64,000 nt of DNA, taken from positions 1,888,001-1,952,000 of the forward strand of contig CAWJGT010000009.1 in NCBI GenBank assembly GCA_963842525.1. Direction: 5' to 3'. Source of the stretch: an uncultured Holophagales bacterium. GTDB taxonomy: Bacteria; Acidobacteriota; Thermoanaerobaculia; Multivoradales; UBA5704. The notes below the pieces were generated by a model, which was not told the DNA's origin, made no database searches, and was given only the letters and a program-made list of their open reading frames with translations. Below are positions 5,975 to 49,791 of this stretch, piece by piece. Position 1 is the first letter of the stretch; the number at the start of each line of letters is the position of its first letter. The position numbers and the translations under genes were made by a program.

Positions 5975-7405
5975 TCACCCTCCGCCCCCGCAGAACGTCG
6001 GCGGGTGGGGCTCCGAGGCGCGGCTGAGCTGGAAGCTGTAGTCGGCCGCGAACGTCGGATTGGGCCCGGACAGGCTGCTGCAGGCGATCGGCGCGCTCTG
6101 GTGGCAGTCCAGACACGAATGGGTCTGGACGTAGGTCTCGGCTGTCAGATTGGACAGCCCGGTCGTCGGCGCCGCGGCTCCCTGACTCAAAGGTGTAATG
6201 CCTCCCACCGGAAACCCTTCGCCGGATTGTGGCCACAGGGCGTTCACCAGCCGGTAGTTGAGGAAGACCGACTTCGGATTGGCCTTGCGGATGGCAGCGT
6301 GGACGCCGTCGTTGAGGGTTTTTACATAGCCCGGGATGGGCACCTCGCGGACCACCTGGATGGGGACATCGCGCTTGTCGCCCGGCTGGGGCTTGCGGTT
6401 CGGTTGGCACTGCGGGCTTCCCGCAGGCTCACAGCGTGGATTGTAAAAGTGATAGGGCGGGCTCAGATGGCTCGTCGCCACCTCGACACGGTCCGGCGCG
6501 TTCTTGATGTGCTCGAAGGTGGCCCAGGTCCAGTTGGGCATGGTCGACGTTTTGTGAATGATGTGCAGGCCCACGAGCCCCATCTTCGCAGGCCGGCAGC
6601 GCCCATTTGGCTCGACGAGCACCGCGTCCATCATCAGGAACTGGTCCCATTGCGAGCGGTCCACCTCCAGCCAGGCCGCTTTGATCTCGATGGCACCTGT
6701 CGGACCATAGCGCGTCGCGCTGGCAGGCAGGTCGATCCCCTGGCCGCCGGACTGGACGGCGGCGTACTGGTTGCGGGCGTCATAGAACTGGTTCTGCGGA
6801 TCGACGATGTAGTTGAAGAAGTCCTGGTTGAGCCGGACCTCGTAATAGACGTTTTTGCGGTTCTGCGCCGTCAGCCAGGCCGGGGGCCGGACGCCCGCCT
6901 CCTGGACCTCGTCCAGCACCTGCCGGCCGATCAGGTCCTCGGAGAACTTCGAGGTCATGGACAGCGTGTGATAGCCCACGCTTTTGGTGAGCACCAGCCC
7001 GTTGGTGGGGCAGCCGGCCGGCGCGTCCTGCGGATCACCCCAGGGCGTGGGGACCGCGCCGCCGGGAGGAAACACCTCCGAGGCCTCCTTGAAGGTCTCC
7101 CACACTACGGGATCGAAGCCGGTCGAACCGAAGGTACCCGGCCCGGCCGTCCGGTCCGGCTGGCCGGGGGCGCCGGCTTTCCAGTTGAGAGCGATGAACT
7201 CCTGCCAGGCGAAGCAGTTGACGTCCGGTTGCTCGGTCAGGGTCGCGTCGGCCGGCAGGTCGGGAGCGATCTTCGGAAAGGTGATGCAGGTGTTGGCGGA
7301 GGCGCCGCCGGGCGTGCCCGCGGGGGTGTTGGCAGAACCGGCGGACCGCAGCCCGAGAGCGGCGAAGGGGACGAGGGTCGCGAGGAGCAGCAGCTTTCTG
7401 ATCAT
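5975..7405 (-). CDS. Secreted hypothetical protein with a C-terminal c-type heme motif
   Basis: Signal peptide; FAWQEFIALNW, IEIKAAW, LVGLHIIHKT and WATFEH blocks; SCLDCH (CxxCH) near the C-terminus. Confidence 0.75.
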   Translation of the reverse strand: MIRKLLLLATLVPFAALGLRSAGSANTPAGTPGGASANTCITFPKIAPDLPADATLTEQPDVNCFAWQEFIALNWKAGAPGQPDRTAGPGTFGSTGFDPVVWETFKEASEVFPPGGAVPTPWGDPQDAPAGCPTNGLVLTKSVGYHTLSMTSKFSEDLIGRQVLDEVQEAGVRPPAWLTAQNRKNVYYEVRLNQDFFNYIVDPQNQFYDARNQYAAVQSGGQGIDLPASATRYGPTGAIEIKAAWLEVDRSQWDQFLMMDAVLVEPNGRCRPAKMGLVGLHIIHKTSTMPNWTWATFEHIKNAPDRVEVATSHLSPPYHFYNPRCEPAGSPQCQPNRKPQPGDKRDVPIQVVREVPIPGYVKTLNDGVHAAIRKANPKSVFLNYRLVNALWPQSGEGFPVGGITPLSQGAAAPTTGLSNLTAETYVQTHSCLDCHQSAPIACSSLSGPNPTFAADYSFQLSRASEPHPPTFCGGGG

Positions 7406-7422: not shown

Positions 7423-9225
7423 TTACTCGATCACAGTGACGAAGGCGGGCGCCGCCGCGTTATAGGTCGTACCCAGCAGGAGGCTGCGCTGCCCCGTGGG
7501 CGCATCGGACGCGACTTCGAGGTCGAGGACGAAAATGTTGTACGTGCCGCCGTTGGTGTTGCCCGGCACGTGATAGCGCTCGTTCTCCAGGAACTGCCGC
7601 ACTTTGACCTGGATGCCGCCGCCGGGAAAGGTGATGGCCGTATCGGAGCTCGTCCCGGTGGTCACCAACGCCATGTTTTTCAGGCTCTGTCCCCGCTTGA
7701 TCACGGGCGCCGCCATGCTGCTGTCGCCGCTGATGTTTGCGGCCAGGTACGCCCGCATCACATCGAAGGCGATGAGCTGGGCTGGCGCCGGCCGGTTCGG
7801 GGCCGGGTCCTCGGCAGTGGGGCAGCCAAGCGGCGTCTGCGGCGACGGCACGTTGCACGGCGGGATGAGCGTGCCATAGAGCCCGACCTGGAACGTCTGG
7901 GCGATCTGCGAGCCCCATTGCAGCGGCCTGCCGTTGATCCGGATGCGGCTGAGGTCCAGGTCCTTGCGGCCGTCCGGCGCACGGAAGACCGCGTGCAGCC
8001 CCATGCCGGGTACGCCCCTCTCGAGGTGCCAGAACTGCTGTGCCGTGAGTCCCGCGCGGAGCCACTCGGCCGGCAGCTCGACGTTCTCGAAGTCGGGCTC
8101 CTGGATGTAGAGGCCCACCGGGTTGGCGATCGAGATCTGCATGTTGAGAGCGCCGACCGCCTCGTTGATCGTGTAGCCGATGTGGGGATCGCTGTGGCGG
8201 AACGACTGGCCGTAGGGAGTGCAGCAGATCACGTCCTGGGGATTCGCGTTCTCCGTGCGCTGGATCGTCGCCGCGGCCCCGAGTCCGATCTCCGCCGGCA
8301 GGCTGTTGGGCGGGCTGGTCAGATGGACCGCGCCGCCCGAGTCTGGCAGCAGCCGCGTCGAATTGTTCCATTTGTTGAGCGGGTTGTAAGCGATCTGGCC
8401 GATGGTCGGATCGTGGACCGGTTTGCCTGCGGTATCGAGGAGGTAGAGGTCCTCCATCGTCACCTTCGGGCTGACGAGCGTCTTGTATAGCTCCAGGACT
8501 TTTCCCGGGCTCACCGTCCAGAGCGCGAACCAGTATTCGGCGTTCTCGCAGGTGAACATCACGCGCACGATCTTGCCGCCCGCGTCCCGTTCGACCGCCC
8601 ATTCGCAGTACTCGTCCATCCAGCCCCGCGCGCCCGCCGGCCCATAGGGCATCGTGGGTTGCGGCGTCGAGCTGATGTAGGGGCAGACGTTCTGGGGGAT
8701 CGGCGGGAGAAAGGTTTTTGCGGCGTCGGGGATCGGCGACGGCAGCGTGCCCGGGTCGAAGACGAAGCCGTTGTCCGCGAACGCGAAGAGCTGGTCCTGT
8801 GTGAAGTAATACTGCGGCGGCCCGAGATAGGTGGTGATCCGGTTGGGAAAGGCGATCCACTCCACCAACCTGGTGATCGACTGCGGCGGAGGAGGGATGG
8901 GCGTCGTCAGCGGGTTGTAGTAATAGCTTCGTGGCGAGTCGAGGTTGGAGGTCCAGGGGTTGCCGGTGATGGCCTGCTCGGTCCACCCATTGACGTTCAG
9001 GTTCCAGCGCCAATGGAGCGCATCGCGCTGCGGGCCGGGAGGGAAGTCCTCCCAATTCGCCGGCGTGTTGAAGGCCGCGAGCGTCTTGCCCGGACACTTC
9101 GTGCCTTGTGAGGCCGCCTGGGCGGCGGCGAAGGCGATGCGCGGCAACGCCCCTCCTGCGCCGGCCGCCAGCGCCGCTCCGCCCGCCAGCCGTAGCAGGC
9201 TGCGGCGCGTCAAGTGATTCGACAT
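7423..9225 (-). CDS. Tat-exported hypothetical protein
   Basis: LTRRSLL twin-arginine signal; 600 aa ORF with GWMDEYCEW, FTCENAEYW and HSDPHIG blocks; ends 17 bp upstream of the heme-protein gene. Confidence 0.75.
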   Translation of the reverse strand: MSNHLTRRSLLRLAGGAALAAGAGGALPRIAFAAAQAASQGTKCPGKTLAAFNTPANWEDFPPGPQRDALHWRWNLNVNGWTEQAITGNPWTSNLDSPRSYYYNPLTTPIPPPPQSITRLVEWIAFPNRITTYLGPPQYYFTQDQLFAFADNGFVFDPGTLPSPIPDAAKTFLPPIPQNVCPYISSTPQPTMPYGPAGARGWMDEYCEWAVERDAGGKIVRVMFTCENAEYWFALWTVSPGKVLELYKTLVSPKVTMEDLYLLDTAGKPVHDPTIGQIAYNPLNKWNNSTRLLPDSGGAVHLTSPPNSLPAEIGLGAAATIQRTENANPQDVICCTPYGQSFRHSDPHIGYTINEAVGALNMQISIANPVGLYIQEPDFENVELPAEWLRAGLTAQQFWHLERGVPGMGLHAVFRAPDGRKDLDLSRIRINGRPLQWGSQIAQTFQVGLYGTLIPPCNVPSPQTPLGCPTAEDPAPNRPAPAQLIAFDVMRAYLAANISGDSSMAAPVIKRGQSLKNMALVTTGTSSDTAITFPGGGIQVKVRQFLENERYHVPGNTNGGTYNIFVLDLEVASDAPTGQRSLLLGTTYNAAAPAFVTVIE

Positions 9226-9527
9226 GACGAGGTCTCCTTTTCAGTCCCTCACAGTAGAGCCTGCCGACAGGGCATCTCCAAAGACCGTGCCCGCGCCGGC
9301 GAGCCGGGGAAGAATCGCTGAAAGCCTTGCGGTCTCAGAGTTTACGAGGAATCGAGCCGGGCCGAGGCTGGAGTGTCTGAGCCGTGTCATCCGTGTCCCG
9401 ACGTGTCGGTGTCATGTCGGGGCCGTCGTTGGGCAGGCCGCGGAGATGGGTCGGATGGTATCATCTGGATGTACGAGTTGCGCCGCAGCGCGTCCCTGTG
9501 ATCTGATTCGAGACCATCGGGGAGAGG

Positions 9528-10241
9528 ATGGCACGCATGACCGCATTTCCCCTCGAGCAACCGATCCACTATCCGGAATCCGACGGCCAGCCCATGGCGG
9601 AAAGCGACCTCCATCGCGACGAGATGGTGTATTTCATCGACGCGCTGAAGGACCATTTTGGCGACGATCCCCTCGTCTACATAGCCGGCAACCTGTTCCT
9701 CTACTACGAGAAGGGGAGGCCCAGGTCGGTGGTGGCTCCGGATGTCTTCGTCGTGCGAGGGGTCCCGAAAAGACAGCGCAGGGTCTACAAGCTATGGGAG
9801 GAGGGCGTGCCTCCGTGCCTGGTCGTGGAGGTGACCTCCGAAAGCACCCGCAACGAGGATCTCGGGACCAAGAGGGATCGCTATGAGCAGCTCGGGGTGG
9901 AGGAGTACTTCCTGTACGACCCCACGGCAGACTACCTCCCGACCCGGCTCGAAGGTCTGCGTCTCGTCAAAGGCCGGTACCGGGAGCTGCCCCACGAGCC
10001 GGACGGATCGCTCCTCAGCCGGACGACCGGCGTACGGCTCGTCCTCGAAGAGCCGCTCGTCCGGCTCGTGGACGCTGTGACTGGAAAACGCCTCCTCAGG
10101 TCCGAAGAGAAAAACGCCGCAATCCAGGCAGCAGAGGCCCGCGCCCGGTCTGCGGAAGCCCGCGCGGAGGAGGAGACGGCGGCCCGCCGCGTCCTGGAAC
10201 AGGAGCTAGAGCGCCTCCGGCGCCAGCTCCGCAGGGTGTAG
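9528..10241 (+). CDS. Uma2 family (DUF820) PD-(D/E)XK endonuclease-like protein
   Basis: YPESDGQPMAES, VAPDVFVV, VVEVTSEST and GVEEYFLYDP motifs; coiled-coil tail. Confidence 0.93.
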   Translation: MARMTAFPLEQPIHYPESDGQPMAESDLHRDEMVYFIDALKDHFGDDPLVYIAGNLFLYYEKGRPRSVVAPDVFVVRGVPKRQRRVYKLWEEGVPPCLVVEVTSESTRNEDLGTKRDRYEQLGVEEYFLYDPTADYLPTRLEGLRLVKGRYRELPHEPDGSLLSRTTGVRLVLEEPLVRLVDAVTGKRLLRSEEKNAAIQAAEARARSAEARAEEETAARRVLEQELERLRRQLRRV

Positions 10242-10255
10242 AAAGCGAAAACACC

Positions 10256-10780
10256 TCAGGTCTCCGAGCCGGGCTTCGGCTGCCGGATATAGAGGGATTC
10301 GTGGAAGGCTGTTCCCTTGCGGACCTGCCGGATCTTCCCGGCGAGGGAGAGCCGGCTGAGGTTCACGCCCACCGAGCGGACGTCCACCCGGCGCTTGAGC
10401 GCTTTGCCGAAGCGCCGTTCCACCTCGCGGGCGATGACGGTGCCCGTAAAGGCCTCTCCCGGCGGGCGTTCCTCCACCACCCGGGCGACAAGGCGGCTGA
10501 GCATCGGCCGACCCGGGCCGAAATCCTCCTCCTGCCGGACCGGCGCCGTCTCCGGCTTGCGGAGAGCGGGAACGCGTCCCACGACCTCGCCGGCCGCGTC
10601 GACGGCCCCCTTGAACGCCTCGTAACGCTCCAGGACATTGGCGAGCCCCTGTGCCGCAACGGCCCGTTGCTCGCGGTGGAAGGCCTCCCGCTCTGCATGG
10701 AGGGCTTCTTCCTTCCGATAGTGCTCGATCTGCGCCTCGAGCTCGGCGATCCACTCTGCGACTGACTGGCTGCGGCTCAT
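10256..10780 (-). CDS. Hypothetical protein: N-terminal coiled coil plus putative C-terminal winged-helix DNA-binding domain
   Basis: ATG at 10780 with a GGAGG RBS; helical N-terminal half; basic C-terminal half FTGTVIAREVERRF...VRSVGVNLSRLSLAGKIRQVRKG resembles a wHTH. Confidence 0.6.
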   Translation of the reverse strand: MSRSQSVAEWIAELEAQIEHYRKEEALHAEREAFHREQRAVAAQGLANVLERYEAFKGAVDAAGEVVGRVPALRKPETAPVRQEEDFGPGRPMLSRLVARVVEERPPGEAFTGTVIAREVERRFGKALKRRVDVRSVGVNLSRLSLAGKIRQVRKGTAFHESLYIRQPKPGSET

Positions 10781-10797
10781 ATCTCCTCCCTGAAAAT

Positions 10798-11428
10798 TGT
10801 CGTAACGTCGCCGTGCTCGCACCCCGGGGCAACCCACAGTGTCGCAGCGGGCAGAAACCACGTCGCCGCGAAGCTCACTCTGTCGCAGGAAACCCTACGC
10901 TGCGACAGTGTCCCTTTGGACGGAAAGCCGGCTTGCAGCCGTCCGCGAGCCGTGCTCCGACTCTGTCGCGCCGTCAGCCATTGAACACCCATATCGCGAG
11001 AAGGGTGCGACATTGCCCTGAAGCGACGCGACAATGCTACCATGCGGCCTGACAGAGTACCAAGACGGTGCAACAGAGGCTGCCCAGACGCGACAAGGCG
11101 AGGATGCTCTGCAGCATGTCTCAACAACTTGGTTGCATTGTTCGAGGACTCTGCGACGAAGCATCGAGGCGATGCGACAATGAGACTAGGCGCTGAAGCA
11201 GAAGCCAGAGCCCCCACGATAGAGAGTCGACACTCTGCGACAGCGCCCGCAATCTCCCGCCTTCGCGAAGAGACGTTGCGACGGCGCACGTTCGCTCTGT
11301 CGCAGAGGAAGGTGACGCTGCGACAGTGTATGCGTGCAATGCGACAGAGTGAGGTGACGCTGCAACAGTGCCCCTAGATCTGCAACGCGTCACCGAGGCG
11401 ACGCGACAAGAAGAGCAGCGCTGCGACA
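10798..11428. repeat. Phased array of TGCGACA / TGTCGCA every ~21 bp with variable spacers
   Basis: Motif or close variant at 10798, 10840, 10861, 10881, 10901, 10964, 11006, 11027, 11048, 11069, 11089, 11110, 11152, 11173, 11236, 11277, 11298, 11319, 11340, 11361, 11381, 11402 and 11422. Confidence 0.85.
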
Positions 11429-11508
11429 GGCGGGAGCGCCGGTGTACCGCCCGGGAGCGGCCGGCATCTCAAAGCAGCCTGTCTTCGTCACGGGGGCCGA
11501 GCATCGCC

Positions 11509-11637
11509 CCCTGGGAGCGCCGGCGTCTCGCCGGCCCACACTCCCCGCGGACCGCGGTGGCCGACCACCTCAATCCCACAGGCCGGGCCTTCGGTCCACT
11601 GTCTTGATGATGCCGGCGAGACGCCGGCGCTCCCAGG
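11509..11637. repeat. REP pair (CTGGGAGCGCCGGC family)
   Basis: ctgggagcgccggcgtctcgccggc ... gccggcgagacgccggcgctcccag; the family recurs at 28435, 40048, 51121 and 62577. Confidence 0.85.
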
Positions 11638-11875
11638 AGCGCAACTTCCGCGTCCGTTGCCGCGAATCGAGGCGGAGTGCCGCCTCGAGCCTGGGCACGT
11701 CGGGAGTGCATATCGCGACGTAGAACACACCGTAGATCCTCCGCCCAGATGCTCCCATCGCACAGAAAGAAATAGAGATAAACTCCCTCTTGTGTGAGGG
11801 CGTTCGGAACCTTATCTGATCGCCAGAGACGTCTAAGCGCGATCCGGGATGCCTTATCGTCCTTCGCAGGTCGCG

Positions 11876-11905
11876 TTGACTCCTGCCGGAGGGAAGGGGT
11901 ATGCT
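11876..11905 (+). promoter_or_regulatory. Candidate sigma70 promoter facing the cassette array (Pc-like)
   Basis: TTGACT - 18 bp - TATGCT, about 100 bp upstream of the attI-like site. Confidence 0.5.
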
Positions 11906-11972
11906 CTCTAAGTTGAGGAACAAGAACACGTTGCAGGCAACACGAGAGGAACGGTACTCCGTCTTATACGGT

Positions 11973-12015
11973 GCGTAGAAGCCCCTAGACAGGATCGCTG
12001 AGTAAGGCGTTGAAC
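11973..12015 (+). other. attI-like site, copy 1
   Basis: Ends in GTTGAAC (GTTRRRY core, 12009-12015) directly ahead of the attC array; identity with the copy at 17516 stops at the G of the core. Confidence 0.5.
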
Positions 12016-12141
12016 TAAACCGCTACGCGGCGGTGCCCTCCGAGCCGAATTTCGCTTTTTTTAGCCGATTTCTTCTCCAAGACGACAAACGTTTCTGATC
12101 GGTCTACCTTTCGGGCTGTACTTTCCCGAAAGGAGGACCCC

Positions 12142-12996
12142 ATGACAGAGATGCGTCGACGGATGGAAGAGGAGTTGAAGCTGCGGGGCTACAGCCCGCG
12201 CACACATGAGGCGTACATCCACTGGGTACGCCAGTTTGCCGCGCACTATCGTCGGCCGCCCGAGCAGATGGGAGCTGAAGAGGTTCGCGCCTACCTGGTC
12301 GATCTTCTCGAAAATCGTAAGCTGGCGCGGTCGTCGTTGGTTCAGGCCTTGTGCGCTTTGAAGTTTTTCTACAGCCAGGTGCTGCATCGGCCCTGCGAGG
12401 TGGAGAATCTACGCTTTCCCCGGCAAAAGAGGAAGTTGCCAACGGTTTTGAGCGAGCCGGAGGTGAGGCGGTTGTTGGAGGCGGCCGAGGACCTGCGGGA
12501 GCAGGCGATCCTGATGACGCTGTATTCGGCGGGCCTGCGCCTGGGCGAATTGCTGCACCTGCAGGTTAAAGACATCGACAGCACGAAGATGCAGATTCGA
12601 GTTCGTCAGGGCAAGGGTTCCAAGGATCGCAACGTCGTGCTGTCGCGGACTCTGCTGGAAGTACTGCGACGCTACTTCCTGCAGTACAGGCCCGAGGTTT
12701 GGCTGTTTTATGGCGAGACGCCGCAGCGGCCACTCAATGAACGGACTGTCCAGCGGATGGTGCGTCGGCTCAGTGAAAAAGCTGGCCTGCGCCAGGGAGT
12801 CAGCACCCACACGCTGAGGCATAGCTTCGCCACCCATCTTTTGGAGCGTGGCACGGAGGTACCGTATATCCAGGAGCTTCTCGGGCATCGCAGCGTGCGC
12901 ACCACGATGCTGTATACGCGGGTCAGTCCGCGAGCGCTGAGCAAGGTGATCAGTCCCTTGGACCGGCTGGACTGGAGACCTCGCGAGTTGACATAG
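12142..12996 (+). CDS. Tyrosine recombinase (N-terminal SAM-like domain), IS91-associated type; not a canonical IntI
   Basis: LRGYSPRT, YSAGLRLGE, GKGSKDR, HTLRHSFATHLLE and LLGH...TTMLY motifs; 284 aa, lacking the IntI-specific insertion. Confidence 0.92.
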   Translation: MTEMRRRMEEELKLRGYSPRTHEAYIHWVRQFAAHYRRPPEQMGAEEVRAYLVDLLENRKLARSSLVQALCALKFFYSQVLHRPCEVENLRFPRQKRKLPTVLSEPEVRRLLEAAEDLREQAILMTLYSAGLRLGELLHLQVKDIDSTKMQIRVRQGKGSKDRNVVLSRTLLEVLRRYFLQYRPEVWLFYGETPQRPLNERTVQRMVRRLSEKAGLRQGVSTHTLRHSFATHLLERGTEVPYIQELLGHRSVRTTMLYTRVSPRALSKVISPLDRLDWRPRELT

Positions 12997-13005
12997 GACG
13001 GTGCC

Positions 13006-14202
13006 GTGTCGGGCACCTCCCGCTTGGAGGTGGCCCACATCTTCCGTCTCTATGGTGAGGAGTATCGGCAAGGACACCGACTCTCCCGGCCGCAGTTGCG
13101 GGCCATGCGGGCCATCGAGATCTGCCGCACCGCCTCTCTGGGCGGGCATGTGGACGAGTGTGACCAGTGCGGTGTACGCACAATCAGCTACAACTCCTGT
13201 CGCAACCGACACTGCCCGAAATGCCAGGGCCTGGACAGGGATCTCTGGTTGGAGCAGCGCTGTGGCGAGTTGCTGCCGGTGCCGTACTTCCATGTCGTAT
13301 TCACAGTTCCAGAAGAGCTCAACCCCCTGGCGCTTGCCAACCCCAAGTGGTTTTACGACCTGCTCTTCGACTGTGCCGCCAAGGCGCTGCTGGAGATCGC
13401 TGCCGATGCCAAGCACCTCGGAGCGCGCATCGGGGTGCTGGCAGTGCTGCACACCTGGAGCCAGACGCTGCTGCTGCATCCGCATCTGCATTGCATCGTA
13501 CCGGGAGGAGGCCTGTCGCCGGACGGGCAGAGGTGGATCGCCAGCCGGCCCAACTACTTCCTGCCGGTCCAGGTGTTGTCGCGGCTGTTCCGCGGCAAGT
13601 TTCTGGCCCAGGTCAAGGCGGCCTGGAAGTCCGGCCAGTTGCGCCTACCAGAGACTCTGCGCGATCCGTTCACCTTCCAGAACCTGCTCGACCGGCTCTA
13701 CCGCAAGACCTGGGTGGTTTACAGCAAACCCCCCTTCGCAGGCCCGGAGCAGGTGCTGGCCTATCTGGCCCGCTACACTCACCGGGTGGCGATCTCCAAT
13801 CATCGCCTCCTCCGTCTGAAAGATGACCAAGTCACCTTCACCTACAAGGACTATACCCAGGGCGGCCGGGTGCGAGAAATGACGCTGCCGGTGGATGAGT
13901 TCATCCGCCGCTTCCTGCTGCACGTGCTTCCTGAGCGCTTCGTGCGCATCCGCTACTACGGCCTGTTGTCCAACCGCCAACGTGCGGGCAACCTGGCCCG
14001 GTGCCGCGAGTTGCTCGGTGCCCCTCCGTCGGAGCTGTCAGTTGCCGAGCCACCGGCCGGCGAGGGCTGGCAAGCCAGGCTGGTCCGGCTGACAGGCAAG
14101 GATCCGACCCTTTGTCCACAGTGCGGGCGGGGCCACCTGCGGCGGGTCGAGGAATTGCCTCCCGCTTGCTCGGCGGCCCGGCCTGGGAGGTCGCCGCCGT
14201 GA
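13006..14202 (+). CDS. IS91 family HUH (Y2) transposase with Zn-binding domain
   Basis: CRTASLGGH, YNSCRNRHCPKCQ, YFHVVFTVP, LHTW...HPHLH (HUH), YLARYTHR (Y2) and RIRYYGLL motifs. Confidence 0.95.
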   Translation: MSGTSRLEVAHIFRLYGEEYRQGHRLSRPQLRAMRAIEICRTASLGGHVDECDQCGVRTISYNSCRNRHCPKCQGLDRDLWLEQRCGELLPVPYFHVVFTVPEELNPLALANPKWFYDLLFDCAAKALLEIAADAKHLGARIGVLAVLHTWSQTLLLHPHLHCIVPGGGLSPDGQRWIASRPNYFLPVQVLSRLFRGKFLAQVKAAWKSGQLRLPETLRDPFTFQNLLDRLYRKTWVVYSKPPFAGPEQVLAYLARYTHRVAISNHRLLRLKDDQVTFTYKDYTQGGRVREMTLPVDEFIRRFLLHVLPERFVRIRYYGLLSNRQRAGNLARCRELLGAPPSELSVAEPPAGEGWQARLVRLTGKDPTLCPQCGRGHLRRVEELPPACSAARPGRSPP

Positions 14203-14465
14203 GACCTGCGCAGGTCCCTGTGGCGTTGCGACTCTCCCAGAGAGTATTGGAGGAGGTGTATCCTCCCGCGATTCTGCGGTACAATGGTGCAAACGAAATC
14301 GCTGTGGGAGGAGCCCTTGGCCGGCCACCAACTCCAGGACGAGGCATTCCGGTACCGCCAGCATCGCATCGCGGGGCTTTCCCGGAGGTGTGGGCGGTCG
14401 AGGCGCGGCTTTCGCCTGCGAATTGATTTGCCATAGCCCGGCAGGTCGGACTCCCCCGCGGTTTC

Positions 14466-14562
14466 GCTCAACCGGCGTCTATCCGCGGTCCTCCCCTGAG
14501 CAGGCGGTGGACTCCGGAGCTGTGTTGTGGGAGGACCCCGGATAGACGCTTACACGTTGGCC
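14466..14562 (+). other. attC-like site at the right end of the IS91-type element
   Basis: GCTCAAC ... gcgtctatccg-cggtcctccc / gggaggacc-ccggatagacgc ... GTTGGCC; long imperfect hairpin. Confidence 0.65.
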
Positions 14563-14623
14563 GGCACATGCGAGATCTTGGCTAAGCTGGTCACCTCCAC
14601 GAGAGGGCGCTGAGTACTAGGCC

Positions 14624-15223
14624 ATGGCTCAGTTAGCGTTTATAAGCCACAACAGCCGTGACACGGAAGTCGCCAGGGAGGTTGCTCTCTTCTTGACTAC
14701 CGAGGGCGTTAATGTGTGGTTCGACGAATGGAACATCGCTGCAGGAGACTCTATCGTTCGGGAGGTCAACTTCGCGCTGGAGCGCTGTACTCATTTCATC
14801 CTCATCTGGTCGACCAACGCCGCACGCTCACCCTGGGTCGGCCAAGAGGCCGAAGCTACAGTAAAGCGCGGCATAGAAGGCGGCGTACCTCGTATCATTC
14901 CGGTAGTACTTGATACGACTCCTTTGCCTCCTTTGGTTTCCGCTATCAGGTACATTCGCTTCGGGGGCGGAACAGAGCAGGACAGGCGAAACATAGTCAG
15001 GGCAGTAGTAGAGAGAGATCCTTCTTCAAACTACACACGCGCAGTCGTGAAGAAGTACAAGGAACTGGTCCGCGGCGTTGATGAGTCTGATCTGATTGCT
15101 TGCCCTGAGTGTGGAAGCCCCAGGGTAAAGATCCAGCAGATAGATGACTATGAGAGAGACCGGTCCGGTGCAGTTGCTACTTGTGAGGAGTGTGGTTGGG
15201 GTGACCTACTAGCGTATGGGTGA
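14624..15223 (+). CDS. TIR-domain protein with C-terminal zinc ribbon (gene cassette)
   Basis: AFISHNSRD, VWFDEWNIAAGDSI, SPWVGQE; CPEC...CEEC; lower GC than the backbone genes. Confidence 0.9.
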   Translation: MAQLAFISHNSRDTEVAREVALFLTTEGVNVWFDEWNIAAGDSIVREVNFALERCTHFILIWSTNAARSPWVGQEAEATVKRGIEGGVPRIIPVVLDTTPLPPLVSAIRYIRFGGGTEQDRRNIVRAVVERDPSSNYTRAVVKKYKELVRGVDESDLIACPECGSPRVKIQQIDDYERDRSGAVATCEECGWGDLLAYG

Positions 15224-15246
15224 CTTACAATGCGGGTGCGTTGACC

Positions 15247-15316
15247 GCCCAACCCCGGCCTCAACCGGACGGCACCGCTTCGCGGCGCCGCGCGGTTAGG
15301 CCCAAAGGCGTTGGCC
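15247..15316 (+). other. attC site
   Basis: GCCCAAC ... ggcctcaacc / ggttaggcc (with an extrahelical base) ... GTTGGCC; 70 bp. Confidence 0.85.
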
Positions 15317-15326
15317 GGACGAACGG

Positions 15327-16325
15327 ATGAGCCAATTGGAGAGCCAACTCCCATCGAGACGGCGGCAGCTAATGGCAGACGTTTTCTTATCATATTCGAG
15401 GCAAGACCTGCCTCTCGTACGGAAACTGGTGATGGCTCTAGAGACAAGGGGCCTAGCGGTCTGGTGGGATCTGTCGATCCCGGCAGGAGCAGTTTGGGCC
15501 AGTGTTATCGAAGATGCCCTGGAATCGTCTCGGGTCATCGTAGTCTTGTGGTCAAGCCATTCGGTCAAGTCAGAATGGGTCCGCGCGGAGGCCGCGCGTG
15601 CAGCCGATCTCGGCAAGTTGATACCGGCTGTCCTTGAGGATGTGCAACTCCCGCTCGGATTCTCGCAATACCAATATGTTGACCTATCGACGTGGGATGG
15701 TTCGTCCAACGCTCCTCCCTTTTTAGCACTCATCCGCGGAATAGCTTCCTTCACGGAAAGGGACCACGCAGAGCGACCGCCGCAACCTGACTCACCGGGT
15801 GATCGAGTTCTCGTGGATACGGCTCGTCCATACAAGGCTCTCCATCGGGCCTCACGCATTAAGCTTTTCATCGCGCATGCGAGTGCCGACAAGCCCAAGC
15901 TACGGCCGACGGTGAAAGTGCTAATCGACCAAGGCTTCCAGCTGTGGGTTGACAAACCTCAGGAGATCGGCTTAGGAAGAGCCTATGAGAATCGATTGTC
16001 GCGAGATCGGATTCAATATGGGCACGACTGGAGAGAGTCTATTCGCGTCGCTGTCAAACGGGCCAGCGTGGTCCTCGCATTCTGGTCTGAAGATGCGGTC
16101 CGGGGGAGACGTGAGCAGTTTCACTATGAGGTGTACATGGGCATGATGCAAAACAAACTCAACCAGTGCCGGATAGATAAAGTTCCGCTCGACGAGATCG
16201 GTATGCCCTATACTTTCGACCAGATCGCGGATTTGGCTGAAATAGAGGAGGGAAAGTACTATCCCGAACTTGATTATCTGATGCAGGACATCGTAGCCCG
16301 GCACCGTTCGTGGTGGTTTGTGTAA
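15327..16325 (+). CDS. Tandem TIR-TIR protein (gene cassette)
   Basis: DVFLSYSRQD...SEWVRAE, then a second unit LFIAHASADK...QLWVDK...FHYEV. Confidence 0.88.
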   Translation: MSQLESQLPSRRRQLMADVFLSYSRQDLPLVRKLVMALETRGLAVWWDLSIPAGAVWASVIEDALESSRVIVVLWSSHSVKSEWVRAEAARAADLGKLIPAVLEDVQLPLGFSQYQYVDLSTWDGSSNAPPFLALIRGIASFTERDHAERPPQPDSPGDRVLVDTARPYKALHRASRIKLFIAHASADKPKLRPTVKVLIDQGFQLWVDKPQEIGLGRAYENRLSRDRIQYGHDWRESIRVAVKRASVVLAFWSEDAVRGRREQFHYEVYMGMMQNKLNQCRIDKVPLDEIGMPYTFDQIADLAEIEEGKYYPELDYLMQDIVARHRSWWFV

Positions 16326-16376
16326 TGCAAAGGTCGCAAAACGAATGGGCATATCGAACAGTCGCGAAAGAGAAGC

Positions 16377-16457
16377 GGCCAACCAGAGCGGTCGAGCGGA
16401 CGGATACCGCGCAGAAAGCGCGCGCGGTCCCGCCGCTCACCGCCAGAGCCGTTCGGC
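16377..16457 (+). other. attC site
   Basis: GGCCAAC ... gcggtcgagcgg / ccgctcaccgc ... GTTCGGC; 81 bp. Confidence 0.85.
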
Positions 16458-16495
16458 GCTAGGTCAGCGCACGTTAGAGAGTGAGGTAAAATCGT

Positions 16496-16717
16496 ATGTC
16501 GGGAAGTCAAGAGGAAATGAGCCAGCCTCCTATACAAACTACAAAGATCTTCAGCTGCGGAGGCCCAGATCTGATTTTCAAGTTCGAAACTCATAGAGGC
16601 TTGATTGGAAGATATTCTCGACCTACCAAAGGGGCTGTCCGGTTAATGCTTCCCAGTGGGAGTGCAAAGCCGGCCCAGGTGCTCGGCGCTCTGCGTGAAG
16701 CCTGGAACAGGCAATAG
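16496..16717 (+). CDS. Small hypothetical ORF, possibly a cassette remnant
   Basis: 73 aa ORF with a GAGG RBS directly after an attC; no recognisable motif. Confidence 0.35.
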   Translation: MSGSQEEMSQPPIQTTKIFSCGGPDLIFKFETHRGLIGRYSRPTKGAVRLMLPSGSAKPAQVLGALREAWNRQ

Positions 16718-16887
16718 CAGGGGAGTCACCCAATGCCAGATTTCATCTACTGTGGAATAGACCCACCGGTCGGTGCTGATGGCACGCAAGAACTACTACT
16801 GAGTCACTATAAGGCGATTTGGTATCCACCGCCGATTTTGGAGCAAAGCCGCCGATCATCGGCATTTCGTCTTGGAGGCACGACCGA

Positions 16888-17355
16888 ATGGAGGCGAAGG
16901 ACATTGCGGCCGCAGTTATTGCAGGACTTAGTGTCTTGGTCGCCGCGTTCACGCTGGCGAAGGGGCTTATCGAGTATCGAAAGCAAGGTGTGACGAAGCG
17001 CGTAGAGTTGTTCCTTCAACTGCGCACTCGACTGAGGCATGACCCGGTGTTCGTAAAGATCTGTGATTTGCTGGAGGTAGATTCCAAAGAGCTGCAAGAC
17101 ATTCCACTCGTGGAGCGAGACAGGTTCATTGGCTTCTTTGAGGAGCTCGCCCTCATACGCAACTCCGGCCTCATTAACGATCAGGTGTCGCTTTACATGT
17201 TTGGCTACTTCGCCATTCGGTGTTATCAGAGCAGCAACTTCTGGCATGGCTTAAATCGCAACCAACCGTTTTGGTCGCTGTTTATGGATTTTGCCCAACA
17301 GATGGAATCTGCACAAAGGACATTCCAATATGACCGTCGCGACTTCTACCTATAG
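16888..17355 (+). CDS. Single-TM cassette protein (DUF4760-like)
   Basis: GGAGG RBS, N-terminal TM helix, FFEELALIRNSGLINDQV motif; followed by an attC. Confidence 0.7.
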   Translation: MEAKDIAAAVIAGLSVLVAAFTLAKGLIEYRKQGVTKRVELFLQLRTRLRHDPVFVKICDLLEVDSKELQDIPLVERDRFIGFFEELALIRNSGLINDQVSLYMFGYFAIRCYQSSNFWHGLNRNQPFWSLFMDFAQQMESAQRTFQYDRRDFYL

Positions 17356-17373
17356 AGCGGAATCTGACAGGAC

Positions 17374-17425
17374 GCCCAACCCGGCGCTGCAGGACGCGCC
17401 GCGCCCCTGAGCTTTGTCGTTGGCG
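17374..17425 (+). other. Short attC site
   Basis: GCCCAAC ccggc gctgcagg / cctgagc ... GTTGGCG; 52 bp. Confidence 0.7.
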
Positions 17426-17490
17426 ATTGACATGAAGCTGCTACAACAATCCCGATTGCTCTTTACGCTGGTGCTGTCTTTTGGTCTCGG

Positions 17491-17552
17491 GGAGCGCAAC
17501 TTCCGCGTTCTACGCGCGTAGAAAGCCCTAGACGGCATCGCTGAGTAAGGCG
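17491..17552 (+). repeat. Internally shortened direct repeat of the 11636-12009 leader (attI-like copy 2)
   Basis: ggagcgcaacttccgcgt is identical to 11636-11653; gcgtagaaagccctagacggcatcgctgagtaaggcg closely matches 11973-12009. Confidence 0.85.
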
Positions 17553-17591
17553 GTCCAGACGCAATCAAGTCACAGGACTGAGGAGAAGACA

Positions 17592-17933
17592 ATGTTTGCG
17601 TGGCTCATGGGTCTCAAGGCCATCTCCCCTGCCGGGCTGCATCAACTGATGCAGGACAAACCAGTAACGGCCGTGGATGTCAACTCTCACCAGAGCTGGG
17701 TACAGGCTCGCGTCTCCGGCGCGCTGAACCTTGATCCGGCCGGCTACGACGAAAACAGTCTTCCGGCGGACAAAGACTCGCTTCTGGTGTTCTATTGCTC
17801 CAACCCGCTGTGCAGAAAAGCGCCCAATGCAGCTCGTCGAGCCAAACAAATGGGCTACCGCAATGTTCATGTCATGTCAGCAGGCATCAGCGGCTGGCTC
17901 AATGCAAAGCTCCCAACGGAGTCTGGCGACTGA
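17592..17933 (+). CDS. Rhodanese-like domain protein
   Basis: AVDVN, VFYCSNPLC and GYRNVHVMSAGISGW motifs. Confidence 0.9.
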   Translation: MFAWLMGLKAISPAGLHQLMQDKPVTAVDVNSHQSWVQARVSGALNLDPAGYDENSLPADKDSLLVFYCSNPLCRKAPNAARRAKQMGYRNVHVMSAGISGWLNAKLPTESGD

Positions 17934-18046
17934 GCTTGCGCCGTCAAAAGACCAAGCATGATGCGGCTCCACGTCAGGGGAGCTGCGGGAGGACGGGTAG
18001 TAGTGCTAAACTAGAGGCGGAAGCGTCATCGAGAGGAGAGACCACG

Positions 18047-18575
18047 ATGATCCGTCCTTTGCTGCTTGCCCTTCTTTTCGCCACTGTCAATGAGCCAGGT
18101 GTGTCGCCGGACCGGCCTTCGCTGCCCGAGGATCCGTGCAGGCTGGCGAGGCGCATCGCCGAGGCGCCTCCGTGCCTTGAGCCGTCCGATTGCCAAGCGG
18201 TCGAGCTGTGGCGCCAGGCCTTCGGAGCTCCCCGAGGTCCTGCTGGTGCGGCCCGAGGTGCCCGGGACGCTCCCGCGTGCCCTGGAGTCCCGTCTGCCGG
18301 ACCGGCAGATTGCTCTCGGGGAGGGCAAGGAGCCCCTCGTTGCCGTCCTCCGCCGGCTGGCCGAGGCGTCCGGGCTCGATGTCCTCGTGGACCGGAGCGT
18401 CACCGGCGATTTCCGCGGGGAGTCCGGAACGGTCCCGCTCGACGAGGCCTGGCGCAGGGTCCTGACCTCCGGGCGGCTGTCCGTCGCTGTCGAAGGCAAG
18501 GTCGTGATGGTCGGGAGCTCGCGCGGCCTGCCTGGGCGTCCCAGAGGGAGCCTGTTCAACTGCCCCGCCCGCTGA
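18047..18575 (+). CDS. Secreted protein with STN/secretin-N0-like domain (frameshifted)
   Basis: Signal peptide MIRPLLLALL; second frame PLVAVLRRLAEASGLDVLVDRSVTG...VPLDEAWRRVL. Confidence 0.55.
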
Positions 18576-18622
18576 GTCCCGGAGGCGCGACGACTGCGGT
18601 CGTTGAGATCCGCGACGCGGCG

Positions 18623-19036
18623 ATGGGGGACGCGGAGCAGGTTGCTCAGCTCATCACCGAGCTGGGATACCCGACCACCTTTGAGGCCATGAGGGATCGG
18701 CTTTCGACGATCCTGGCCGATCCGAGCTATGCGACGTTCGTGGCGGACGCAGGCGGTGACGTTGTCGGCGTGGCTGGAGCTGCTTTTTCCTGGTACTATG
18801 AAAAAGATGGCATGTATTCCCGATTGCTCGTCCTTGCCGTGTCGTCAACAACACGAGGGTTGGGCATCGGCGGTGAGCTCGTTCAGGCCGTCGAACGTTG
18901 GGCCATTGCCAAGGGCGCGCGTGAAGTAGTTGTCAACAGCGGGCTGCACCGCAGCGATGCCCATCGCTTTTACGAACGATGCGGATATTCCCGCACCGGT
19001 TTCCGCTTTGTCAAACAGCTTGGAGCGCAGAGATGA
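18623..19036 (+). CDS. GNAT family N-acetyltransferase (start uncertain)
   Basis: LAVSSTTRGLGIGGELV and AHRFYERCGY motifs. Confidence 0.9.
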   Translation: MGDAEQVAQLITELGYPTTFEAMRDRLSTILADPSYATFVADAGGDVVGVAGAAFSWYYEKDGMYSRLLVLAVSSTTRGLGIGGELVQAVERWAIAKGAREVVVNSGLHRSDAHRFYERCGYSRTGFRFVKQLGAQR

Positions 19037-19383
19037 CCGAGAATAAAAAAACGGTGGAGCAGTACATGGATGGCTTCCGGCAAAGCGACCATGAGCTGAT
19101 CCTGTCCTGCCTGACGGATGACGTCGAATGGGAGATGCCCGGCGCGTTTCACCTGGTTGGCAAGGAAGCCTTCGACAAGGAAATCGAGAACGATGCGTTC
19201 GTCGGCCGCCCCATCATCACCATCACGCGAATGACGGAAGAAAACGATGTCGTCGTCGCGGAAGGCTCAGTGCGCGCAGAGAAGAAGGCCGGCGGCTTCC
19301 TCAGCGCGGTGTTCTGCGATGTATTCATGATGCAACGTGGCAAGATCAAGAAATTGATCACCTATCTCGTGGTGGTGGAGTGA
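19033..19383 (+). CDS. SnoaL/NTF2-like protein
   Basis: NKKTVEQYMDGF...LTDDVEW...VVVAEG...FCDVF; ATGA overlap with the GNAT gene. Confidence 0.88.
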   Translation: MTENKKTVEQYMDGFRQSDHELILSCLTDDVEWEMPGAFHLVGKEAFDKEIENDAFVGRPIITITRMTEENDVVVAEGSVRAEKKAGGFLSAVFCDVFMMQRGKIKKLITYLVVVE

Positions 19384-19386
19384 GGC

Positions 19387-19872
19387 ATGATGGACAATCT
19401 TCAGCTCAAGCACGTGCCGATGATGAAGACCGGAATGCTGATCCGCAAGCCGGTCGCCGATGTGTTCGAGGCCTTTGTCAACCCGGACATCACCACCAAA
19501 TTCTGGTTCACCAAAGGCAGCGGAAGGCTCGAGGCTGGCAAGCAGGTCCAATGGGAGTGGGAAATGTACGGCATCTCGATCCCGGTGACTGCGAAAGCCA
19601 ACGAGCTGAACAAGCGCCTTGTCATCGAGTGGCCGGGATACAGTGGTCCCATCACCGTGGAATGGACGTTCGCGCCGCAAGAGGATGGCACGACATTCGT
19701 CAGCATCACGGAGGAGGGCTTCATTGGCGACGGGGACGAGCTTGTGAAGCAGGTGACCGACTCGACGCAAGGGTTTTCTCTGGTGCTCGCGGGCGTCAAA
19801 GCGCTCCTCGAGCACAACGTCAGACTGAATCTGGTGGCGGATCGTTTTCCCAAGGGGATCGAGGAACACTAG
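19387..19872 (+). CDS. SRPBCC/AHSA1 family protein
   Basis: MLIRKPVADVFEAFVNPDITTKFWFT and LAGVKALLEH motifs. Confidence 0.9.
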   Translation: MMDNLQLKHVPMMKTGMLIRKPVADVFEAFVNPDITTKFWFTKGSGRLEAGKQVQWEWEMYGISIPVTAKANELNKRLVIEWPGYSGPITVEWTFAPQEDGTTFVSITEEGFIGDGDELVKQVTDSTQGFSLVLAGVKALLEHNVRLNLVADRFPKGIEEH

Positions 19873-19877
19873 CGGAA

Positions 19878-20294
19878 TCAGCCCAGGTCGCTCGCGTCCC
19901 CTTCCCCCAGCGCGATCTCGGCGTCGAGCTGGTGGCGCAGCTCCTGGGGTGAGATGACGGTGCCCTCGCCTTCGGGGGTAGGGAAGATGGCGACGGACAT
20001 GCGCTCCTCTTCGAGGAGGGGGAGGAGATCTTCGAGCAGCTCGCCGAGGGCGATCGCCTCCGGAGTTGCGCCCTCCCACTCCCCGTGCGCACAGGGCTCG
20101 GCGAACCTCGGGTGCGGCCAGAGGGGGAAGGAGTCGCCGCCGTCGGGCGTGCTCCCTACCACCCAGCCGGCCTCGCCGCGGAGCCCCCAGGCTTCTTCCC
20201 AATCCACGACGATCTGGAGGAAGAGGCTGTAGCGGTCCCGCGGCGGCAGGCCGAGGACCTGCCGCCGCTCGGTCTCGCTCAGGTCCCAGCTCAT
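19878..20294 (-). CDS. DUF2750 family protein
   Basis: RYSLFLQIVVDWEEAWGL, FPLWPHPRFA and ELLEDLLPLLEE pattern. Confidence 0.8.
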   Translation of the reverse strand: MSWDLSETERRQVLGLPPRDRYSLFLQIVVDWEEAWGLRGEAGWVVGSTPDGGDSFPLWPHPRFAEPCAHGEWEGATPEAIALGELLEDLLPLLEEERMSVAIFPTPEGEGTVISPQELRHQLDAEIALGEGDASDLG

Positions 20295-20357
20295 GAGCGC
20301 GCGGCCCCCCGCACGATCCAGGGCCGCTCGAAAAAGGTGGCGCCGCCTCGACGCCCT

Positions 20358-20467
20358 GCCCCGGGTTGACACCCGGGGCTACCCAGTTTCGCCCTCCGGG
20401 CTCTCGAATCAAGGGCTCTTTGAGCCCGGAGGGCGCTATTCGGTAGCCCAGGGTGTGAACCCTGGGC
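20358..20467. repeat. REP pair (GCCCAGGGTGTGAACCCTGGG family)
   Basis: Two small palindromes within a long inverted repeat; near-identical copy at 24688-24815. Confidence 0.85.
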
Positions 20468-20477
20468 GAGGGCTCGC

Positions 20478-22203: not shown

Positions 22204-22313
22204 TGGGCCTCCAAGGGAAAAGAACAGGGGCGCCAGCCCATCGGACGAGGTGATTCTACGTGAACCGGGAGAGAAAGGCTGCGCAGGCGAAGCCGAAGCC
22301 GTCGTGGAGGCTC

Positions 22314-22531
22314 AGAGGGTGTTTTGGAAAACTCTGCTGGGGGCGTCGCCTTGGTCCCTCACCCCCGGCCCCTCTCCCATCCGCACTCCCTTCCCCCGGG
22401 AGAGGGGAGAAAAGCATGATCAGGAAGCTCCTGTGTGGGGGCTCCCCTCTCCCGGGCGGGTGTGAGTGCGGATGGGAGAGGGGTCGGGGGTGAGGGACCA
22501 GGGCTCGCGCAGGAATTTTCAGACACCCTCT
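22314..22531. mobile_element. ~218 bp MITE-like element with a palindromic CCCTCACCCCCGGCCCCTCTCCC core
   Basis: Terminal IRs agagggtgttttggaaa / tttcagacaccctct; copies at 39621 and 48161. Confidence 0.8.
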
Positions 22532-22566
22532 CTGCGCGCCACACGAGGACTCTCGGATGTAGTAGC

Positions 22567-24643: not shown

Positions 24644-24687
24644 GGTGCTGTTGAGTGTAGCGGGCTGGCACCGGTCTCGCCAGCCTC

Positions 24688-24815
24688 GCCCAGGGTTCAC
24701 ACCCTGGGCTACCCAGTTCCGCCCTCCGGGCTCGAATACCTGCGCTCGCTCCGATAAGGAGATCTTCGCGAGCCCGGAGGGCGCCATTCGGTAGCCCAGG
24801 GTGTGAACCCTGGGC
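24688..24815. repeat. REP pair (same family as 20358)
   Basis: gcccagggttcacaccctgggctac ... gtagcccagggtgtgaaccctgggc. Confidence 0.85.
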
Positions 24816-24845
24816 GAGGGCGCGAGGCCCATCAGCACGGCCAAC

Positions 24846-46758: not shown

Positions 46759-46764
46759 CCCGGC

Positions 46765-48265: not shown

Positions 48266-48377
48266 TCAGGAAGCTCCTGGGTGGGGGCTCCCCTCTCCCG
48301 GGCGGGTGTGAGTGCGGATGGGAGAGGGGCCGGGGGTGAGGGACCAGGGCTCGCGCAGGAATTTCCAGACACCCTCT
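48161..48377. mobile_element. MITE-like element copy
   Basis: Near-identical to 22314-22531. Confidence 0.82.
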
Positions 48378-48391
48378 GAGGGGGGAGCAGC

Positions 48392-49759: not shown

Positions 49760-49791
49760 AGCCGGCTCCCGGAGGAGCTGCTCAGCCCGAT

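Follow-up and report, generated by a model that had tools for sequence, protein, structure and literature searches.

In our study, a stretch of 64,000 nucleotides from an uncultured Holophagales bacterium (contig CAWJGT010000009.1, positions 1,888,001 to 1,952,000 of the forward strand; hereafter the window) was found to contain a recently active insertion sequence (IS) of the IS91 family. The element belongs to a two-gene subgroup, in which a tyrosine recombinase gene is followed by the gene of a Y2 HUH transposase, and it is site-specific, as each copy in the genome is inserted at the closing GTT of a leader sequence that is diverged and carries a promoter. By its sequence, the recombinase groups with the integron integrases (IntI) and is without the IntI-specific insert, and the right end contains a long hairpin that resembles a cassette recombination site (attC) only in outline. 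We propose, with a probability of about 0.5, that the transposase makes a single-strand circle, which is integrated by the recombinase of the element at the GTT of a leader. The features of the element and of its target, all on the plus strand, are as follows.

11850-12008: leader landing pad of about 160 nt, promoter-bearing, ending at a GTT core and lying outside the IS (a family of 15 members)
11876-11905: sigma-70-like promoter (TTGACT, 18-nt spacer, TATGCT), reading towards the element
12009-12011: left GTT, the trinucleotide found at both ends of the element and single in an empty site
12012-14558: IS core, 100% identical to the copy on contig C25 and 99.92% to that on contig C3
12012-12030: left (terIS-like) end, GAAC and a small CCGC-TAC-GCGG hairpin, kept across phyla
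12142-12996: tyrosine recombinase of 284 aa, IntI/Xer-like, without the IntI-specific insert (domain, profile and structure-sequence matches, tree)
13006-14202: IS91-family Y2 HUH transposase of 398 aa (domain and NF033538 matches)
14431-14436: subterminal CCATAG motif, upstream of the R''-like box in the relatives and used as parsing anchor
14466-14472: R''-like box GCTCAAC, which fits RYYYAAC and is the reverse complement of xTT plus GAAC
14475-14549: long imperfect hairpin with arms of 21 nt (14475-14495 and 14529-14549) and one C-C mismatch
14550-14558: linker TTACAC and terminal GTT (comparison of copies and relatives)

The ends of the element were determined from its copies, aligned with their flanks. 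A DNA search of the 9.9-Mb genome recovered three full copies, the one in the window included, and one truncated copy. Identity between the copies begins with GTTGAAC at 12009 and stops at ...GATAGACGCTTACACGTTG (14559), the left end reading GGCG-GTT-GAAC (the last seven letters at 12009-12015) and the right end CAC-GTT-G (from the GTT on, 14556-14559). The IS core defined by this comparison is 2,547 bp long (GAAC...CACGTT), with a GTT at each side, and the flanks past the right end differ among the copies (GCCGGCAC, TGCGACAG and GGCGGAGC). Over all 2,547 bp, no difference from the window was found in the C25 copy and 2 were found in the C3 copy. The truncated copy (G000:C3:132456-132805, locus L004), which is also situated at a leader, ends after 348 bp and is 98.6% identical. 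A preliminary description, made from the letters of the window, had placed the element at 12009-14562, and the ends defined by the copies agree with it within 3 nt. Its left junction had been put after a GCCGAAT; this motif was found at 12044-12050, 33 nt inside the element, where no junction is present.

A further insertion was found on a contig of run X1, with the 3' part of a C1-type leader before the element and ATGCCGCAAGCACATCTCTAGT after it. The sequence ATGCCGCAAGCACATCTCTAGT is also that found 3' of the GTT at the C1_1230 leader, which is empty in the assembly. The C1_1230-type site reads GGCG-GTT-ATGCC when empty and GGCG-GTT-[GAAC...CAC-GTT]-ATGCC when occupied (X1). The empty site thus has a single GTT and the occupied site one on each side of the insert, which is compatible with a GTT borne by the IS or with a 3-bp repeat, and strand exchange may have taken place at any position within the GTT.

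The leader family contained 15 members in the genome, together about 2.4 kb of the 9.9 Mb: four occupied by the IS, seven full and empty, one partial (in the window), one followed by a solo hairpin and two degenerate. A leader GTT was the site of all four copies of the assembly and of the X1 insertion. The occupied leaders were 72-91% identical to that of the window, compared with 99.9-100% for the IS copies; the leaders, being more diverged than the IS copies, are therefore pre-existing targets. In an alignment of the leaders, both promoter hexamers are conserved without or almost without variation; the leader also has further invariant blocks and the end GC(G)GTT. This promoter was the sole promoter-like site found in 11600-14700. 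The seven full empty leaders end with GTTAGCT, GTTAGGC, GTTATGC, GTTATTC, GTTATAC, GTTCGGC and GTTGGGC; the GTT is present in 7/7 and an exact GTTRRRY in 2/7.

The leader itself showed no hairpin or conserved fold (z-score about -1; consensus fold of -5.3 kcal/mol with 1 compensatory pair), and it was rejected as an attC or a structured RNA on this weak folding and on the Rfam search of 9000-23000 given below. It was also considered as a relic of the IS 3' end and rejected, as the local alignments were no better than shuffles, except for one marginal case. A hidden Markov model of the leader had 0 matches in 81 IS 3' regions, and likewise 0 in the surroundings of 30 true intI genes and of 80 related IS loci, and the leader was not found at the DNA level in the genomes of 40 relatives. 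The family is specific to this genome, where many attI-like platforms head single attC-ended cassettes and no integrase is present. A stretch of 178 nt upstream of the leader (11673-11850) is common to the window and the loci L002 and L006 (76-88% identity) and overlaps a minus-strand open reading frame (ORF) of 119 aa (11570-11929), for which neither Pfam nor NCBIfam gave a match.

The transposase ORF contained the Y2_Tnp (E 4e-67) and Zn_Tnp_IS91 (E 1e-32) domains and matched the model of IS91 family transposases, NF033538, with 463.7 bits (cut-off 125). The recombinase ORF is found upstream of it, co-oriented, with a gap of 9 nt. The left end has the layout of the IS91 type, a subterminal palindrome beside a cleavage tetranucleotide, without terminal inverted repeats, and its consensus in the relatives across phyla was xTT-GAAC-N-AAACCGC-loop-GCGGTRG. 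According to PMC13181058, terIS lies upstream of tnpA and contains a palindrome and the tetranucleotide that is cleaved (5'-CTCG in IS91, 5'-GTTC in IS801 and IS1294), and oriIS is the opposite end, followed by the target tetranucleotide. On E. coli plasmids, the right ends of IS91 and of an IS1294-like copy were found to read ...CCTATCGAT and ...CCTATACGT, respectively, each followed by GAAC, and the joint of an IS91 tandem ...CGAT followed by CGAG. From these plasmid copies, the published tetranucleotides are therefore those of the bottom strand, and the GAAC of the left end here equals 5'-GTTC. The left end is thus that of a regular IS91-family member. The right ends of IS91 and the IS1294-like element were found to be devoid of the box, the hairpin and the xTT, and both elements contained no recombinase.

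A transposase scan of public genomes gave 508 relatives that were confirmed. We retained 80 loci, which represent Acidobacteriota, Latescibacterota, delta- and alphaproteobacteria, Bacillota, Ignavibacteriales and further groups. A recombinase homologue was present directly upstream of the transposase, on the same strand, in 79/80 loci, and the same gene pair is annotated by RefSeq on a Sinorhizobium plasmid; the two-gene architecture is therefore widespread and already catalogued. Head-to-tail tandems were found in an Acidobacteriota genome (L022), on a Sinorhizobium plasmid (L100, NZ_CP023065.1, two-gene) and, for IS91 itself, on an E. coli plasmid (L113, NZ_AP027416.1). In a complete Latescibacterota chromosome (G334), 6/6 copies were located at the GTT end of another conserved pad, which contained a small covarying hairpin followed by GAATGCAG(A/T)AGTT; one empty pad of this kind reads ...GAATGCAGAAGTT directly followed by AACAGAAAGC. 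The closest relative (L020, transposase 82% identical) is present in another Acidobacteriota genome and has an attC-model match of 19.5 bits (E 0.018) at 6130-6190, about 1.1 kb past the right end of the element.

At the right end, the last GTT is part of GTTGGCC (14556-14562). The hairpin folded better than 200/200 shuffles on either strand (z-scores of -2.9 and -4.2). The box, the hairpin arms, the linker TTACAC and the GTT were present in 3/3 full copies, identical despite the different flanks; the same stem sequence was found in an element whose transposase is 62% identical, and the stems of the elements in other phyla covary. The right-end hairpin is the element's own. The preliminary description had named its absence from other copies as the observation that would make it the resident attC of an interrupted cassette, outside the IS. 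For this explanation, which we consider extremely improbable, speaks the leader at G000:C3:183075-183306 (minus strand, L005), where, after ...TCGCTCCTCGTG, the leader is directly followed by a solo IS hairpin (89 nt, 93% identical), with TTATTATGCGGCGTGAAC and a gene for a TIR-domain protein next and no IS present. This solo hairpin is probably what remains of an IS copy, and could have arisen by two deletions or from a mini-element. The hairpin being kept in the copies up to the GTT and in the relatives, the resident-attC explanation is therefore refuted.

The right ends of the relatives follow one plan: CCATAG, 15-45 nt, a 7-nt box (mostly GTTCAAC), 2-6 nt, a long hairpin, 5-10 nt and a terminal trinucleotide, which repeats that of the left end. 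The stems vary by lineage and stay complementary. We examined the box in 80 items (the window and 79 loci); both the left-end motif and the CCATAG anchor were parsed in 42 of them, the expected 7-mer being sought up to 75 nt after the anchor. In 41/42 parsed loci, the box was the reverse complement of the left trinucleotide plus GAAC, exactly in 31 and with a single mismatch in 10; the remaining locus had three mismatches. Ten classes of box and left end were found, for example GTTCAAC/GTTGAAC, GTTCAAT/ATTGAAC, GTTCAAG/CTTGAAC, GTTCTTC/GAAGAAC, GTTCAGC/GCTGAAC and GTCCAAG/CTTGGAC. GTTCAAC was present in 0/21 loci of the ATT class and GTTCAAT in 0/13 of the GTT class. Pairing of the box would require the two ends to be joined, as in a circle or a tandem, or the box to read the cleavage sites in trans. 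A joined form is present in the natural tandem of L022 (2506-7529, period 2,508 bp), in which the box helix closes the long hairpin, with the small left-end hairpin beside it (z-scores of -7.8 and -8.3 on the two strands). Joined ends would give a folded site RYYYAAC-hairpin-GTTRRRY with a covarying helix. In the element of the window, the outer boxes of the attC type are GCTCAAC...GTTGGCC in place, and the second becomes GTTGAAC upon joining of the ends.

The recombinase ORF contained a Phage_integrase domain (E 1e-41) and an N-terminal SAM_4 domain. Its top NCBIfam match was the integron integrase model TIGR02249, with 238.9 bits (below the cut-off of 265) in two stretches that skip the model positions 178-235; the XerA/integron-integrase model was matched above its cut-off (232.7 vs 220 bits). 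The best solved structure by sequence was VchIntIA (2a3v, E 4e-51), again in two stretches, between which the query residues 178-195 (18 residues) stand opposite the VchIntIA residues 180-239 (about 60); the IntI-specific insert is therefore absent from the IS recombinase. The C-terminal SPL..RL tail is common to both proteins. The gene is not divergent from the cassettes, as it is located inside the mobile element and co-oriented with them. In a tree of 67 rows, 27 IS recombinases and 15 IntIs were found on one side of a branch (SH-aLRT 99, length 0.66), with 8 XerC, 8 XerD and 9 other tyrosine recombinases on the other side, the support being for the IS recombinases and IntI against the rest and covering no order inside that group. 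The recombinase is the nearest sampled relative of IntI. A four-group tree (IS recombinases, IntI, XerC, XerD) was set aside as a proof of sisterhood and extended by the 9 other recombinases; it is uninformative on this point, because XerC and XerD make one side anyway. The recombinases beside related IS copies at L041, L053 and L091 were ruled out as IntI. In PMC7790495, the closest relatives of IntI are considered to be the Xer proteins.

The genes that follow the element form a small cassette array. Its features, on the plus strand, are as follows; the scores are those of R1, a covariance model with R boxes, L boxes and stem pairs made from 23 aligned attCs adjoining true intI genes.

14624-15223: TIR-domain gene (domain match), the cassette displaced from the leader by the IS
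15247-15316: attC, R1 24.9 bits, E 3e-5, fold z-score -4.2
15327-16325: second TIR-domain cassette gene (domain match)
16378-16457: attC, R1 16.3 bits, E 0.0047, fold z-score -3.5
17374-17425: weak attC, R1 15.1 bits, E 0.0096, fold not better than shuffles
17425-17552: second leader copy, partial and unoccupied, ending GGT and not GTT (copy comparison, leader alignment)

The attCs of the model came from the 12-kb array-side stretches of 20 intI genes of the phylum, by a simple scan for core, inverse core and hairpin, and the model is narrow (effective number of sequences 5.6). A strict regular-expression scan of the genome for attC gave 56 matches with no clusters, missed the attCs of the window and was replaced by R1. 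No match over the integron-integrase cut-off was found in the genome, the top matches being the three IS recombinases; the three attCs, on one strand within 2.2 kb, are thus a cluster of attC sites lacking an integron integrase (CALIN). In a sample of the phylum, IntI over the cut-off was found in 93/301 genomes (90/298 without the unpublished G189, G088 and G063). Behind empty leaders, R1 found an attC after the first gene at L104 (42.3 bits) and L106 (24.6 bits), and weakly at L110 and L005; the first genes encode TIR, AHSA1, AbiJ_NTD4 or DinB-like proteins or have no assigned family. The promoter-bearing leaders, located ahead of attC-bounded cassettes, are therefore at the place of attI, without any intI. 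Two IntI-model fragments were also found in the genome, at G000:C9:1070920-1071162 (model positions 94-174, 106 bits) and 1073750-1073893 (positions 168-215), the second covering part of the IntI-specific region. These fragments, which lie about 830 kb from the window, may be left over from a true intI.

In this setting, the element could be an ordinary integron cassette, with its hairpin as a true attC, moved by a host IntI since lost from the genome. It lies behind a GTT core in the orientation of the cassettes and has RYYYAAC...GTTRRRY outer boxes, and integron integrases are common in the phylum. Against this stand the R1 scores of 3.4 bits (E 8.3) for the hairpin at 14466-14562 and 6.8 bits (E 1.1) for the natural junction of L022, both at the noise level, whereas the neighbouring attCs score 15-25 bits; the IS has the outer boxes and a hairpin, and the inner L boxes and the spacing of attC are absent. 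There is no IntI in the genome, yet the copies are nearly identical and one site is polymorphic, and the relatives occupy pads and replicons for which no integron link was found. We consider a cassette moved by a host IntI unlikely.

The preliminary description had called the element an IS91-type element with an IntI-related recombinase, which the domains, NF033538 and the grouping on the IntI side of the tree bear out. The orientation and the right end (GCTCAAC...hairpin...GTTGGCC, at 14466-14472, 14475-14549 and 14556-14562) were given correctly, and the position after an attI-like core holds for every copy in the genome, each being at a leader GTT before attC-bounded cassettes. Its claim that the right end has the format of the neighbouring attCs stands for the outer boxes and the hairpin and fails with R1. 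The suggested mimicry of attC is likewise matched by the RYYYAAC...GTTRRRY form of the joined ends, with strong covariation, and not by the covariance model. Junctions at att cores were expected, and were found for the copies of this genome; the Latescibacterota chromosome has a different pad, for which no integron link was found, and the alphaproteobacterial copies share only the short flank described below.

We favour integration by the recombinase because of the specificity at the level of whole pads, the near-universal linkage of the two genes and the precedent of CTXphi, whose integration uses a single-strand hairpin and Xer enzymes without the I2 region, according to PMC7790495. The HUH transposase would release a circle of one strand, like that reported for IS91; in PMC13181058, the functional circular intermediate of IS91 comes from its bottom single strand. 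The terminal xTT, joined to the left GAAC, would pair over 7 bp with the box that precedes the hairpin, and the junction would fold into the RYYYAAC-hairpin-GTTRRRY site. The IntI-related recombinase would then exchange one strand, the xTT of the junction with the xTT of the double-stranded leader, in a manner that may be likened to attC x attI insertion or to the Xer integration of the CTXphi hairpin. Replication would complete the insertion, after which the leader promoter could read into the recombinase and transposase genes.

Several observations weigh against integration by the recombinase. In IS200/IS605 elements, the right end has the same layout of guide, hairpin, linker and cleavage site, and the HUH enzyme alone suffices. 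IS91 and IS1294-like elements transpose without a recombinase. The recombinase of the IS is without about 42 aa of IntI, the I2 region included, which is held responsible for single-strand recombination in PMC7790495. The tree contained no archaeal XerA and omitted many other recombinase families. The low R1 scores of the hairpin and of the L022 junction, given above, belong here as well. The pad of the relatives on the Latescibacterota chromosome is different, and no integron link was found there, and the alphaproteobacterial copies have only about 6 nt of left flank in common, approximately (A/G)GGATT. No joint of 14558 to 12012 was present in the contigs of 4 runs, although contigs cannot show its absence.

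Many of these points fit an explanation in which the Y2 HUH transposase alone excises the element and inserts it site-specifically. The 7-nt box would be a guide, pairing with the cleavage site xTT-GAAC and the target xTT as in IS200/IS605, and the recombinase would be accessory, for example in resolving tandems or multimers or in regulating termination, like Orf121 in IS91. This explanation accounts for the same anatomy nearly as well and ranks close behind integration by the recombinase, and we hold it to be possible, if somewhat less probable. The layout of box, hairpin, linker and cleavage site is found throughout the family, the left GAAC is the terIS tetranucleotide of the IS91 family, tandem copies occur in L022, on the Sinorhizobium plasmid and in IS91 itself, and the classical members of the family manage without a recombinase. 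An accessory ORF upstream of tnpA, Orf121 of IS91, is given a regulatory role in PMC13181058. The same source describes for classical IS91 many target sites with only a tetranucleotide in common; against this specificity stand the long conserved pads in 5/5 insertions of this genome and 6/6 of the Latescibacterota chromosome. The linkage of the recombinase across phyla (79/80 loci) suggests a core role, and the right ends of IS91 and the IS1294-like element stop at CCTATCGAT or CCTATACGT, without the box-hairpin-xTT extension.

Like IS91, IS801 and IS1294, the element contained a Y2 HUH transposase with a zinc-binding N-terminus and no terminal inverted repeats, a subterminal palindrome by the GAAC of the end that precedes the genes, insertion in a fixed orientation and tandems. 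Unlike the classical members, it has a tyrosine recombinase, a right end extended by the 7-nt box, the long hairpin and a target-matching terminal trinucleotide, and long conserved pads as targets in place of any GAAC or CAAG. With the annotated two-gene elements (tyrosine-type recombinase/integrase and IS91 family transposase) it shares the gene pair and its order. ISShvi3 and ISWz1 of ISfinder are presumably also two-gene members. ISShvi3 is reported inside an integron beside an attC in PMC9229058, the paper closest to the present subject among those found. The two-gene architecture is already known. In the literature searched, no paper was found on what the recombinase does, on the covarying helix of the junction, on the specificity for landing pads or on the kinship with IntI.

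With integron cassettes, the element shares insertion at a GTT after a promoter-bearing site, ahead of cassettes and in their orientation, the putative RYYYAAC-hairpin-GTTRRRY form of the joined ends and a recombinase that is the nearest sampled IntI relative. It is unlike them in that the recombinase, without the I2-bearing insert, lies within the mobile unit, that an HUH transposase is aboard and that L boxes, attC spacing and a match to the attC model are absent; the leader, unlike attI, has no adjoining intI. In the IS200/IS605 elements, the foot of a subterminal hairpin is preceded by a short guide, which base-pairs with the cleavage site, and the target is identical to one cleavage site. 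The IS is similar in having a hairpin with a short box 5' of its foot that matches the cleavage site, and differs from these Y1 HUH elements in its Y2 transposase, a pairing of 7 nt instead of 4 nt and the presence of a recombinase. By analogy, CTXphi (PMC7790495), one of the elements whose folded single strand is integrated by Xer recombinases, may be compared as an HUH rolling-circle replicon with a single-strand hairpin imitating a recombinase site, for which an I2-less Xer suffices; the present IS encodes a recombinase of its own and has a target other than dif, and its hairpin is a putative recombinase substrate. The IS1111-attC group and the group IIC-attC introns are described in PMC9229058 as mobile elements specialised on integron recombination sites. 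They insert inside attC, whereas the present IS, with a hairpin of its own, uses a leader GTT.

Integron integrases are unusual among the tyrosine recombinases in that they act on folded single strands. The IS recombinases, which span phyla and group with IntI against XerC and XerD, bear on the origin of this activity, and as IntI-like recombinases encoded in elements expected to make single-stranded circles they offer a concrete, testable system. Such elements account for IS91-like elements seeming to form cassettes in integron arrays, and they point to promoter-bearing landing pads ahead of defence-type cassettes (TIR, AbiJ). A bolder conjecture, which we regard as rather unlikely, is that the two-gene IS91 subgroup represents a self-contained, one-cassette 'proto-integron', with a single-stranded circle made by the HUH enzyme, a fold of attC format and an I2-less recombinase inserting at the GTT of a double-stranded, attI-like pad with a promoter; IntI and attC would descend from, or share an ancestor with, such elements, and the recombinase might also act on the leader-cassette units of IntI-less genomes.

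Other repeats and motifs were also found in the window. A REP-like paired inverted repeat (CTGGGAGCGCCGGCGTCTCGCCGGC...) was present at 11502-11636 and 40038-40214, 28.5 kb apart, with 93-96% identity. GCGACA was dense at 11000-11420, where 8 of the 17 plus-strand occurrences of the 64-kb window lie within 421 nt. The Rfam search of 9000-23000 gave only Acido-Lenti-1 (RF01687) and microRNA-model noise. Acido-Lenti-1 formed an inverted pair, in which the minus-strand match scored 39.8 bits (gathering score 37) and the plus-strand match 32.9 bits; the region coordinates are 20359-20466 and 24684-24824, a similar pair being 4.3 kb away. A palindromic element of about 160 nt, with 53-nt arms that are 87-92% complementary, was present three times (22343-22504, 39648-39804 and 48194-48350), and its copies draw spurious microRNA-model matches. 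A gene-sized unit of about 1.4-1.6 kb, containing internal 30-nt repeats, was found in four tandem copies (45660-51130, 63-86% identical) and in a fifth copy 11 kb away (61710-62480).

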